A stretch of 64,000 bases of DNA from Neophaeotheca triangularis (lineage: Eukaryota). The notes beneath the pieces are model-generated. The model made no database searches and was not told the origin of the DNA. It worked only from the letters and a program-made list of their open reading frames with translations. Position numbers and translations under genes: made by a program. Position 1 is the first letter of the stretch; every line of letters begins with the position of its first letter. This document shows positions 1,421-5,903 of the stretch, piece after piece. The stretch spans positions 124,001 through 188,000 of the forward strand of contig BAAIJX010000025.1 of the NCBI GenBank assembly GCA_054600435.1. Direction: 5' to 3'.

Positions 1421-1889
1421 GTTTGTGCTGAGAGTGTGTATTCAGTGTTCGTCTCTGTGCGGGTGCTGCCGGGTAGGGTGGGTATGGCTAGTGGGCAAGA
1501 TATGTGTGAAGAGTGCAGAGAGAGGTAGTAGTAAGTACTAGCAGGAGGTACAGAGAGTAGTGACACAAGGTGGGATGAGTCGGCAGGACGTTGTTTAAAG
1601 TCCCGACGGTTTCCTTGGCAGTGGCATGCAGCCGCATCAATCATCTCCAAGGCACTGGGCTGGCTACCTAAGTTGGTTATCGACGACAGCCAGCCGTCTC
1701 TCTCTCCTCGTTCCCTCCAGTCTCCCGTCTCTTCAGCCCCTCGCATTGTGAATCGGGGAGTGCACGAATCAGCGACATATCTAGCTGGTTATTTACAACC
1801 TCATCACCTCATCAACACGACTCTTACTAGACTCGCCGAATACCAGATACCCCTCCTCCTCCATAGCGACACACAGCAGCCTTGGAACG

Positions 1890-4597
1890 ATGGTTGGGAA
1901 GAAGTCAGGCCGCGCCCTTTTGCGGGAAGAAGGTGAGTTTCCCCCTCGTGTCATTTTATCGCGTCTTACTACTTGTACTATCAACCTGCGCAATCGCATC
2001 GCATCCTTAATTACACCGCTCATGTCGATTCCGGGGCCTTTTGTCGTCGCGAATGTGGATGCATGCATGCTAAGCAATCGCAATAGGGCTGCAGCGCACG
2101 GACAACAATATGCTCCATACGACCTGGCCGCAAGTGAACATGATAAACCAGAAAAACTACTACACGTATGTCCAACCCCTCTTTCATCCACCCCTTCACC
2201 CTTGAATTTGCCTTATCCATGCCAAACAGTTGAGTTGCCCTCACCATGGTCAGCCGAAACATCTTGAATAAGCTGAGGAAGGGCACCAAGGATGTTTATG
2301 CTCTCAACACGCAATACGTCAAGAGGTACGATAACGGCTGGCCTTCTCAACTGCCTCGTGACAGGAGCAGCAAACAAATTCACCCTCGACTCAAGTTGTT
2401 GTGTTCTTGAAAGAAAAAGTTCAAACTGACACGCTCCAACAGTGACTTCCTCAAGCGCGACGACCAGATTCTCGCTCTTCGACTTCAGCAAGATGAGCGC
2501 CTCGACCGCCGGAAGAAGGCCGCTGTCGACATCGACAGAGCACGAGCTCATGCGGCTCAACAGGGCCTCGCCTTTGTGGGGCCAATTGACCCAGATCTTG
2601 ATGGCGATGTTGCCATGGATGATGAAGGCGAGGACTATGGCTCCAAGACCATTGTTATTCACCCCGGCAGCCAGAACCTACGTATCGGTTTGGCCACCGA
2701 TGCGCTCCCAAAGACCGTTCCCATGGTGATTGCGAGAAAGTCAGATCGCTCCGAGGCCGAAAGCAGCGAGCCAAAACCCAAGAGGGTGAAACTGGATGCA
2801 TCGCCCGAAGAACAGTTCGGTGAAGAGGTGAGATTACCACCGCGTGATAAGAGTTGTTTTGACCTTGCTGATCCTTTTTAGTTTGCCAAGGAATATAATT
2901 CTATGTCAGGGCTGTTCAGGACGGCACGAAGACAGGCGAAGCGCAGGGTCCTCCCTAACTCCCGCGAACTAGTTACCAAGTGGAACTCGACTACGCCGCC
3001 AGAAGTCATCTCGGAGCATAACGATCCGCTGCGCATTGACTGGACTGAACTCCCGCCTAACCCTAGGCAAGCACCTGACTACATCGTTGGTAGCCCAGCT
3101 CTTCGCATCCCTGAAGACTCGAACCCTCGGTATCATCTCAACTGGCCAATGCGGTGCGGCTGGCTCAATGAAACGGACTACGACAGCCGCACGAGACTCT
3201 TCAGTGACTTCTTCACCATCATCGAGGACAGCATCCAGACGGAGCTGGGCCTCAATCGCAAGCGAGAATGGTCCCAATATAGCTGTGTCTTCGTCATCCC
3301 AGATCTTTACGAGAAGACGTTGGTGATTCGAATTCTCGAGGAGCTAATGCGTAGCTTCGGCTTCGCCCGCGTATGTTTCATTCAAGAGTCCCTAGCGGCT
3401 ACTTTTGGCGGCGGTTTTGGCATTGCCTGCATTGTTGACATGGGAGCCCAAAAGACCAGCGTGTGTTGCGTGGAGGACGGCATGTGCATTGAGGACTCCC
3501 GTATCAACATGAAATACGGCGGGTACGACGTTACTGATACGTTTGTGAGGATGATGTTGTTTGATCGCTTCAACTACGCCGACTTCAACCTCATGAGGCG
3601 CCACGATTTTCTGCTTGCCGAGGAGCTGAAGCAGCAGTACACGTTACTCAGCGACGAGAACATCAGCGTGCAGCTGTATGAATTCCATCTGCGTGCAGCT
3701 GGACAAAAGACGAGAAAGTTCCAATTCAAGATCTACGACGAGGGCATGCTGGCACCGATGGTAAGCACCAAGTCTAGCTTGAGGTGAAATCAAGTGCAGC
3801 GTACTGACTATCAAATTTAGGGCTACTTCAACCCTCGAATCTTCGACAATTCGCAGAAGCTCACTGGTCGTCGGAGGCTCATACCTCGATCTGCAGATCT
3901 TTACGATCAGTCACCGAATGACCCGACCTCAATTTCTCAGTCAATGGTTATCAAGCACACTCACCAATACATTCCGACCGCGGTAATGGATGCTACCGAG
4001 AAATCCGCGCGCATTCCTCCCACCCAGGCGATCTCTACCCCAAGCAAACATAAACAGCCTGGGATACCACCGCATCTGAATGGTAACAATGGTGAGCAAG
4101 AGGGCACACCTCGCTCTTCGGTCGCTGGATCACCCGCGCCCGAGGAAACTGGCACGCCATCTGCCGTCGACCAAAAGCCGGCCGAGGCCAACAACAGTGA
4201 AGTCAAAAGCACACAGCCCGATATCGAACTGATCGACCGTACAGTTCCGCTGATGGGTCTCGATCACGCAGTGCTCACATCCATCTCTGCTGCCAGTGGT
4301 GAGGACGAGCGTAAGCGCCGCGACCTCCTCGGCTCGATCATGCTTATCGGCGGTGCTTCCAAGACACCACACCTCGGTACCTACCTGGAAGCCAGATTGC
4401 GAGCGAATATGCCGCAGTATCCTAAAGAAATTCTAGTAGCGCCTCCCCCGAGAGAGTTGGACCCATCTGTGCTCGTCTGGAAGGGGGGCAGCATCTTTGG
4501 GAAGCTCAGGATGACCAACGATAGCTGGATCGGACAGCTGGAGTATGATCGCCTCGGCGTCAGAATCCTTAACTACAAGGCCATGTGGCACTGGTGA
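1890..4597 (+). CDS. ARP8: Actin-related protein 8, INO80 complex subunit
   Basis: Introns 1933-2086, 2166-2442, 2828-2881, 3761-3820. Motifs INQKNYYT-DFLKRDDQ, IVIHPGSQNLRIG, IVDMGAQKTSVCCVEDG, WKGGS and C-terminal YKAMWHW. Confidence 0.95.
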
Positions 4598-4728: not shown

Positions 4729-5640
4729 TTAGCTGACAGTGTCGTACCCGACCTCGACCTTTCCTTGGACACAACCCCAGAAATCCTCAATCAACTTCTT
4801 CTGCCCCTGTTCGTCGCCCTTGGGCACAGCCCTCGCAGCCATATACCGTCTCTGATCGATCTTGGGATCCCAATCCCCGGGATTCGCCCCAACCATCCTG
4901 CCCCCAGCCTCCTCCAAAATCACCCACCCAGCACAAACATCCCAAGCCCAACAGCCAGCTTCCCAGTAAACGTCCAGATGCCCGGCCGCGACACCACAAA
5001 TGTTCAACTCGGCACTCCCCAAACTCCGGATCCCATGCACCATGGCCCCGCCAGTCTCCTCGGTCGCACACAACTTGCTAAAAGTCTTCGTCTTTACCTC
5101 GTAATCATTCCCCGTGCGATCAGACCCCCACTCCACCGCGACCAGGCAACTGCTCAAACCGCGAAAAGGCTCGGGCTCCCGGAGCGGCAGAGAGCGCGAC
5201 TGCCCGTCGAACTCGGTCATCGTCGCACCCCGGCCTTTGACCGCGGTAAAGAGCGTTTGCGTAAAGGGGTTATAGATGACACCGACGACGGGCTTCTTGG
5301 CCACGGCCACGCCAATGGAGACGGCAACGTACGGGTGGCCGTGGAAGAAATTCGTCGTGCCGTCAATGGGGTCGACGATGAACGTCGGGGCCTCGCTTAG
5401 CTCGTCGCCGGCTTTGTACGTTTCCTCGCCCATGAAGCCAAAGTGCGGGTAGGCTTGCGTGAGCCGGGTGGATATCATCTTCTCCACTGCTTGGTCCGTT
5501 TCGGTGACTAGGTCGGCCGAGTTCTTTTTGAAGCCTTCGCCCGAGGCTTTGGGCACTGCTGAGGCGATTGTGCTGCCTGCTTCCCGGGCTAGCTTGATTA
5601 GGAAGGTTTGAACTTCTTCGAGGTCGATGTTGGCGGCCAT
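4729..5640 (-). CDS. Inositol monophosphatase family protein
   Basis: Single exon from MAANIDL (ATG 5640). Signature motifs DLVTETD, GEE, IVDPIDGTTNF, RSLGSA, WDVCAG. Confidence 0.93.
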   Translation of the reverse strand: MAANIDLEEVQTFLIKLAREAGSTIASAVPKASGEGFKKNSADLVTETDQAVEKMISTRLTQAYPHFGFMGEETYKAGDELSEAPTFIVDPIDGTTNFFHGHPYVAVSIGVAVAKKPVVGVIYNPFTQTLFTAVKGRGATMTEFDGQSRSLPLREPEPFRGLSSCLVAVEWGSDRTGNDYEVKTKTFSKLCATEETGGAMVHGIRSLGSAELNICGVAAGHLDVYWEAGCWAWDVCAGWVILEEAGGRMVGANPGDWDPKIDQRRYMAARAVPKGDEQGQKKLIEDFWGCVQGKVEVGYDTVS

Positions 5641-5903
5641 GGTTAGGTTTTTTGGTCTTGGGTCCCTGGCTTTGTCTCTGTTTGCTGTCTTGATGGGCAA
5701 GTTTTTCTACGAGAGCTTTTTCTACGAGGCGCGGTTGGTGATTTTTATAAATCCCTCGAATCCTGGTCTCTCGCCGTGGTTTTCCGATGGAGTAGTGCTT
5801 CGTCTCGAAGTAATCACTTGGTGGCTTGCAGGTAGTGAGTGATCCAGCCACGGTAGGTTTGGCATTGGGTTCGAGAGTCTGAGGTGGTTTCTGATGGTAA
5901 ATA

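Follow-up and report, generated by a model that had tools for sequence, protein, structure and literature searches.

A conserved coding exon within intron 2 of ARP8 as a candidate alternative N-terminus in Capnodiales and Mycosphaerellales

Neophaeotheca triangularis is a filamentous ascomycete. In a 64,000-nucleotide (nt) stretch of its contig BAAIJX010000025.1 (the window, whose positions are used throughout), the second intron of an ARP8-like gene contains an 80-nt segment, 2246–2325, that on comparison with relatives is very probably a true coding exon, conserved and spliced to exon 3. We propose that this segment is a protein-coding alternative 5′ exon of ARP8, gained once at the base of its clade and kept since then under purifying selection. 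The canonical mRNA (exons 1, 2, 3 and onward) would remove 2166–2442 as a single intron. A second mRNA would start inside intron 2, in the pyrimidine-rich region 2166–2245 (segment 2a); AUG 2246 would be its first good start codon, and its weak donor, 2325/GT, would be spliced to the same exon-3 acceptor, at 2443. The predicted product is an Arp8 in which residues 1–41 are swapped for a basic 27-residue peptide and the remainder is unchanged. We hold the scheme as a whole, internal transcription start included, to be probable, with less confidence than we place in the exon itself.

A preliminary description of this DNA, made from its letters alone, had proposed a cryptic exon in the intron, acting as a poison exon or as an alternative N-terminus. 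The letters on which it relied are in place: aaacag at 2224–2229, CACCATGG at 2242–2249, the ATG at 2246–2248 and GTACGA at 2326–2331. Segment 2230–2325 does measure 96 nt, and splicing by script reproduces the reading of both products. Inclusion as a cassette from 2230 gives ...NYYT followed by a stop (AC+T TGA), and the frame opened by ATG 2246 reads MVSRNILNKLRKGTKDVYALNTQYVK and joins exon 3 in phase. The acceptor CAACAG before 2443 is common to the alternative exon and the canonical exon 2 donor, and the first base of exon 3 completes either Thr (AC+T) or Ser (AG+T) before DFLKRDDQ. The segment of the N-terminus that would be replaced measures 41 residues, not 40 as first stated, and the caveat that no clear branch point precedes 2230 also holds, segment 2a of the window containing no CTRAY motif. 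On a single sequence, the exon pattern is not beyond chance: after mononucleotide shuffling of the intron, 568 of 2,000 shuffles contain an open frame that begins with ATG, is 60 nt or longer and runs to a GT(A/G) in phase. It is relatives that provide the evidence that the exon is real.

To obtain relatives' DNA, metagenome contigs were scanned with an alignment of the exon-3 peptide, which yielded 68 loci. A profile hidden Markov model of the 26-residue alternative peptide matched the window at E = 1.2e-17 and 13 of the 68 loci (L001–L013) at E ≤ 4.5e-16, the next match having E = 0.97, and in every one of the 13 the peptide is located between exons 2 and 3. Three of these (L007, L010 and L013) were left out because they repeat L006, L009 and L012 in the exon and the sequence next to it, so that the comparison set consists of 11 distinct sequences, namely 10 loci and the window. 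An equivalent of ATG 2246 is present in all 11, the length from ATG to donor is exactly 80 nt and free of insertions and deletions in each, and every exon ends in AG/GTA. Donor positions +4 to +6 are variable, which makes the donor a weak one. The conservation of ATG, frame and donor that the preliminary description had suggested looking for in relatives is thus found, invariant in 11/11 and with the ratio of nonsynonymous to synonymous differences (pN/pS) at 0.15.

The sequence around the exon behaves differently. Mean pairwise identity is 0.59 in the upstream flank (segment 2a) and 0.58 in the downstream flank (segment 2b), against a shuffled baseline of 0.55, making both unalignable; the flanks are 68–102 nt and 81–130 nt long, respectively, and no aligning sequence was found upstream of the ATG among the 11. 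In window coordinates, the conservation profile reads 0.76–0.88 over 2250–2329 compared with 0.25–0.55 in the flanks, and this island scores like exons 1–3. Intron 2 measures 242–293 nt where it holds the exon; elsewhere it is absent or about 53–186 nt long.

Within the island, substitutions are distributed as in a coding sequence. Of the 26 columns at each codon position, 14 vary at position 1, 6 at position 2 and 25 at position 3, and mean pairwise pN is 0.110 with pS at 0.749; the resulting ratio lies between those of exon 2 (0.09) and the first 26 codons of exon 3 (0.19). Stops occur in the other two frames of the exon in several loci. In codons 2–4, the residues V, G and R persist despite synonymous variation (GTC/GTT/GTG; GGC/GGA/GGG; AGG/AGA/CGG/CGC/CGA), and this conservation at the amino-acid level argues that they are translated. 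Around the start codon, position −3 is a purine in 10/11 sequences and position +4 is G in all 11, within a segment of 58–69% pyrimidine. Because the ATG is invariant, codons 2–4 are conserved and the context is favourable, translation appears to start at ATG 2246, and from this we infer that an mRNA 5′ end is needed within 2166–2245. Of the two roles offered by the preliminary description, the alternative N-terminus is therefore the one that the comparison favours, given the invariant ATG, 80-nt length and AG/GTA in 11/11, the codon-pattern substitutions and the unalignable flanks.

A weak further hint comes from exon 2, whose synonymous divergence (pS 0.531, with variation at 18 of its 25 third positions) falls below that of the alternative exon (0.749) and of exon 3 (0.746). 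This may reflect an overlapping regulatory constraint, for example for a downstream start site, and the 25 codons involved are too few to lean on.

The age of the exon can be read from a maximum-likelihood tree of the exon-4 region with 57 rows. All exon-bearing rows fall in one clade of 33 rows with support 100/100, which holds named Mycosphaerellales (Cercospora, Septoria, Zasmidium, Pseudocercospora, Baudoinia and others) together with Polychaeton citri (Capnodiales), the latter being the sister of the window (support 97/88). Among the DNA rows, 11 of 11 in the clade have the exon and 17 of 17 outside it do not, and the sister group, to which Elsinoe belongs, is among those without it. Most simply, the exon was gained once, at the base of Capnodiales and Mycosphaerellales (Dothideomycetes), and then retained. 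MVG(K/R)K opens both N-termini (1890–1904 and 2246–2260) in most relatives, and an (I/L)N...Y motif closes both before the shared exon; the alternative exon may have arisen from the canonical start by duplication and shortening. That the alternative exon is the sole true start was considered and rejected, as exons 1 and 2 are conserved across Pezizomycotina and exon 2 has a pN/pS of 0.09 in the clade.

Public gene models already contain the exon, sometimes as the sole model. The alternative peptide occurs in gene models of 13 named species of Capnodiales and Mycosphaerellales, 11 of which start with the peptide spliced to exon 3, and seven full-length matches begin MVGRK(I/V)LDGLRKGKKD(L/V)YALNVQY..S before continuing with exon-3 sequence. 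Two Acidomyces richmondensis models (P0158 and P0159) start at the alternative ATG and read in frame through the next intron into exon 3 (MVGRKGLDALCKGKKDIYALNVQYVRRY...SEFLKRDDQ), probably because of a mis-modelled donor. Some annotations pair the alternative form with a second one: Cercospora zeina BST61_g1578 has an alternative form of 712 amino acids (aa) and a canonical form of 726 aa, Pseudocercospora musae AC579_8194 has the alternative form beside another isoform, and protein clusters at 90% identity hold both forms for several species. Pipelines of the BRAKER and Maker2 type report extra isoforms mainly when evidence supports them. The C. zeina genome is described as annotated with BRAKER from mapped RNA-seq (PMC9677705), and that of P. 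musae as annotated with Maker2 and Trinity transcripts (PMC4981473). The two-isoform loci lend indirect support to alternative donor use. Elsewhere the annotations of this clade disagree on the Arp8 N-terminus, with records of 706 and 722 aa for Zasmidium cellare and of 712 and 726 aa for Septoria linicola, a disagreement that is explained if both starts are real coding exons.

Transcription of the canonical gene could be followed in RNA contigs from four (X1, X3, X4 and X5) of five matching sequencing runs, the five runs holding 5–11% of the sampled words. Contigs from these four runs cover parts of exons 1–5. A 151-nt contig from X1, a marine metatranscriptome, differs from the window by one base, contains the splice 1932^2087 and spans 1843–2147. 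It implies that the organism or a very close relative was transcriptionally active in the sample and that canonical transcripts start at or before 1843.

Several observations weigh against the proposed scheme. Among X1, X3, X4 and X5 there is no RNA contig on 2148–2597, the sole nearby contig stopping at 2147. Transcript-sized Logan contigs (P0006, P0007 and P0049; 720–724 aa, 2258–2573 nt) encode the canonical N-terminus, so the canonical form is the major mRNA, at least in those relatives. When residues 1–40 of the alternative form were used as a query, the search of long proteins returned 6 matches among 14 candidates, all of them NCBI gene models. The 19 short matches comprise 17 open reading frames (ORFs) that end within or at the end of the following intron, P0122, which reads through that intron into exon 3, and P0121, a spliced gene model filed under Quercus suber that is presumably a fungal contaminant. 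Neither the long-protein nor the short-protein search gave a transcript-sized contig with the alternative form, and the alternative mRNA, if it exists, is probably minor. Gene predictors are able to call an exon of this kind unaided by evidence, and the evidence tracks of the two-isoform loci were not visible. The window copy is intact and is the most divergent of the set (pN 0.224 to the others); its segment 2a, 69% pyrimidine, contains an upstream ATG at 2219, which opens a 4-codon upstream ORF with its stop at 2231–2233, as well as the acceptor-like AAACAG. In L011 (exon at 1140–1219), a tree neighbour of Friedmanniomyces endolithicus, codon 24 is TAG where the related L012 has TAC; the ATG and donor are intact. 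This stop suggests that the exon is dispensable or decaying at L011; it may mean that a single copy of the gene, perhaps a duplicate, is losing the exon, or it may be an error of assembly. The canonical N-terminus is the one used in every Friedmanniomyces gene model seen. Finally, two features would be compatible with inclusion of the exon between exons 2 and 3. In the window, the cag before 2254 delimits a 72-nt in-frame unit that would add 24 residues after NYYT, and in model P0051 of Meristemomyces frigidus the peptide follows NYYT as an in-frame insert.

These last features belong to the reading in which the segment is a cassette between exons 2 and 3, included either in frame, from the cag before 2254, or as a poison exon, from the AAACAG before 2230, that would lower Arp8 by nonsense-mediated decay (NMD). 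An AG lies no more than 14 nt from the ATG in 11/11 loci and an in-frame acceptor near the ATG in 7/11, segment 2a is pyrimidine-rich throughout (0.58–0.69), and the in-frame acceptors together with the Meristemomyces model make inclusion between exons 2 and 3 possible in some species. Against a cassette, CTRAY is found 12–20 nt before the exon-3 acceptor in 11/11, but upstream of the alternative exon in only 2/11, both more than 60 nt from the ATG. The AG positions upstream of the ATG are not conserved among loci, and neither acceptor position nor frame outcome is shared even by close relatives (the frame is kept in L004 and L009 and lost in L003), so that inclusion in relatives would keep the frame, shift it or find no acceptor, depending on the locus. 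The ATG and codons 2–4, which would lie outside or at the edge of a cassette, are moreover conserved at the protein level. Poison cassette exons such as those of splicing-factor genes offer a likeness in that inclusion from 2230 in the window puts a stop directly after exon 2. Such exons depend on an acceptor and a donor that are both conserved, and selection keeps their RNA sequence instead of a single reading frame, whereas the ARP8 exon has no conserved acceptor or branch site and its constraint is codon-like: a pN/pS of 0.15 in one frame is not needed for a poison exon. With the region of 2230 unalignable, the AG positions differing and CTRAY upstream in only 2/11, the poison-exon half of the preliminary description is not sustained, and we consider a cassette of either kind rather unlikely.

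The same CTRAY counts are consistent with another arrangement, which requires no acceptor or branch site at all: exon 2 could be extended through segment 2a to donor 2325 in place of 2165, the canonical frame stopping within 2a and ribosomes arriving at AUG 2246 through leaky scanning or reinitiation. Continued past the exon 2 donor, the canonical frame of the window does stop, after 13 codons. However, the canonical AUG, two further in-frame Met codons and an ORF of 40-plus codons would then precede AUG 2246, and under scanning a start codon behind such upstream AUGs and ORFs is initiated inefficiently. The length of read-through varies from 3 to 59 codons, with no stop in the intron at all in 2/11 loci, and NMD would be expected to act on the mRNA, a fate that fits poorly with long-term constraint at the protein level. 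We judge an extended exon 2 to be distinctly unlikely. It is also conceivable that the island is conserved for a non-coding reason, as an intronic enhancer, a small RNA or an antisense element, and that the gene models are predictor artefacts, in keeping with the finding of no spliced alternative mRNA in the RNA contigs or protein searches made. The codon-periodic and indel-free substitution pattern, the pN/pS of 0.15, the stops in the other two frames, the invariant ATG and AG/GTA that exactly bound the conserved stretch and the lack of an Rfam match make this very unlikely. Among specific candidates, a small nucleolar RNA or other intron-hosted RNA was rejected on the Rfam null result and the codon-periodic conservation, and an antisense gene was rejected because the minus-strand ORF at 2213–2677 overlaps exon 3 and has no separate conservation signal.

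The preliminary description had further placed the acceptor, ATG and donor in or beside RNA stems, among P1–P4, that would decide exon use. The minimum free energy (MFE) structure of the window does pair parts of 2248–2340. Its stability is nonetheless that of shuffled sequence: the whole intron has an MFE z of +0.13, with 105 of 200 dinucleotide shuffles folding at least as well, and 2220–2340 has a z of +0.16, with 113 of 200 doing so. RNAalifold predicted 0 pairs on the 11 aligned sequences, and an Rfam search of 1500–3000 at E ≤ 10 gave three weak matches, none within the intron. As conservation also has a 3-nt period, a structure-controlled switch is extremely unlikely, and this part of the description is not supported; on present comparisons, the conservation within the intron is explained by coding.

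If the alternative 5′ exon is used as we propose, its consequence for the protein can be specified. The 27-residue basic peptide (consensus MVGRKVLDGLRKGKKDVYALNVQYVR + S) would take the place of Arp8 residues 1–41, a stretch with the NQKNY hook, the W-P segment and the region of the N-terminal helix, whereas DFLKRDDQ onward, including K45 in window numbering, would be kept. The Chaetomium thermophilum Arp8 chain 8a5d_U (...SWPEVQPINQKNYYTDYMKRDDQ) can be matched to the canonical N-terminus at each residue. Its N34-Q35-K36-N37-Y38 corresponds to NQKNY at the end of exon 2, and its K44 is the K of (F/Y)(L/M)KRDDQ at the start of exon 3. According to Kunert et al. 2022 (PMC9733932), the Arp8 N-terminal extension is a chain that runs along the Ino80 HSA helix, and the hook contacts linker DNA; the same source reports that nucleosome sliding is lowered by the substitutions N34A/Q35A/K36A/N37A/Y38A/K44A in C. 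thermophilum Arp8 (CtArp8) or by truncation of the extension. In yeast, arp8 delta-N is reported to lower sliding while leaving the complex intact (Brahma et al., PMC6098158). The extension is described in these papers as part of the INO80 sensor of DNA length and shape, deletion or hook mutation uncoupling ATP hydrolysis from sliding (PMC6098158, PMC9733932). By homology, the alternative Arp8 should still assemble into INO80, with a different DNA-contacting N-terminus.

The proposed arrangement has partial counterparts among known systems. It resembles alternative first exons and promoters, a general eukaryotic class, in having its own start codon, a donor of the same phase, one shared acceptor and a change confined to the N-terminus. 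It differs in that the ARP8 exon is only about 80 nt 3′ of exon 2, inside a 277-nt intron, so that any promoter must overlap coding exons of the same gene; it has also persisted across two fungal orders, with a start site that is predicted from sequence. With respect to C. thermophilum Arp8 in the INO80 A-module (PDB 8a5d/8a5p/8a5q; PMC9733932), canonical exons 1 and 2 encode the homologous segment, whereas the alternative exon would drop the hook and everything N-terminal of it, keep K44 and the rest, and supply an unrelated basic peptide ending ...YALN(V/T)QYV(K/R)S. No natural hook-less isoform is described in the parts of PMC9733932 drawn on here. The engineered yeast arp8 delta-N (PMC6098158), CtArp8 delta-N and Arp8.1 (PMC9733932) likewise miss the N-terminal segment that natively contacts DNA; with them, the complex stays intact and nucleosome sliding is reduced. 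They were made in the laboratory by truncation or by exchange for alanine, whereas the alternative exon encodes a conserved replacement peptide under selection, which would make changed function more likely than mere loss.

The coordinates of the locus are collected in Table 1. Spliced by script, 1890–4597 on the plus strand encodes a 720-aa Arp8 in five exons, and by several sequence criteria the gene is ARP8-like. A total of 1068 proteins match exon 4 at E ≤ 1e-20, and the named ones are all called Arp8; PDB 8a5d_U, 'Actin-related protein 8', was matched at 2.1e-219 with the closest named relative, P0005 (78% identical in exon 4), as the query. The Pfam Actin family (PF00022) is recognized in exons 4 and 5, and its match in exon 3, 0.0013, is below the cut-off on its own. 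The Arp8 N-terminal motif GLxRTDNN...WP...INQKNYYT-xxLKRDDQ is present in window exons 2 and 3, and most of the 68 loci have it too. The neighbouring genes are ordinary ones: downstream, a member of the inositol monophosphatase family at 4732–5706 on the minus strand (Pfam 3.4e-72), and upstream, also on the strand opposite to ARP8, an NTF2-domain gene fragment at 839–1309 (2.4e-05).

Table 1. Positions of ARP8 features in the window
Feature	Positions	Strand	Basis
Exon 1 (canonical start, MVGKKSGRALLREE + 1 nt)	1890..1932	+	Letters, spliced translation; X1 contig over 1843–1930, continuing at 2085–2147
Intron 1 (GTGAGT...CAATAG)	1933..2086	+	Restores frame; GT..AG joint in one X1 contig
Exon 2, encodes GLQRTDNNMLHTTWPQVNMINQKNYY(T), including the NQKNY hook motif	2087..2165	+	Translation, alignment to C. 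thermophilum Arp8
Intron 2 of the canonical mRNA, 277 nt	2166..2442	+	
Segment 2a, intronic in the canonical mRNA; putative site of internal transcription start and short 5′ untranslated region	2166..2245	+	
Alternative coding 5′ exon (predicted): ATG in CACCATGG context, 26 codons (MVSRNILNKLRKGTKDVYALNTQYVK) and AG of a split Ser codon	2246..2325	+	
5′ splice donor of the alternative exon, GTACGA	2326..2331	+	AG/GTA invariant in 11/11, sequence beyond unalignable
Segment 2b, predicted intron from the alternative exon to exon 3	2326..2442	+	Branch motif CTGAC at 2426–2430, 13 nt before the acceptor
Exon 3, shared by the two forms	2443..2827	+	65–78% identity to the 13 closest loci, L001–L013
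Exon 4	2882..3760	+	Pfam Actin 7.6e-10
Intron between exons 4 and 5	3761..3820	+	
Exon 5, stop included	3821..4597	+	Pfam Actin 3.8e-11

Among the listings of full-text literature searches, we found no published description of this Arp8 isoform, which is weak evidence of absence. An alternative first exon is in itself a known gene architecture, and what is new here is an example that extends across a clade. From the conserved start codon, frame and donor we infer a spliced alternative mRNA, probably a minor one, in N. triangularis, and any effect on INO80 would follow from it. One tentative possibility, which we consider more doubtful than the exon or its proposed mode of use, is that this clade builds INO80 in two natural versions, one with the canonical hook sensor and the other with a conserved basic peptide from an intron-embedded promoter and exon, such that the choice of start site would retune the reading of linker DNA and nucleosome positioning, for example under stress or infection. 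If the proposed use of the exon is true, filamentous fungi would have here one of few alternative first exons that are both old and conserved, and a naturally maintained isoform that replaces exactly the hook segment would provide a ready-made experiment on hook function in vivo.

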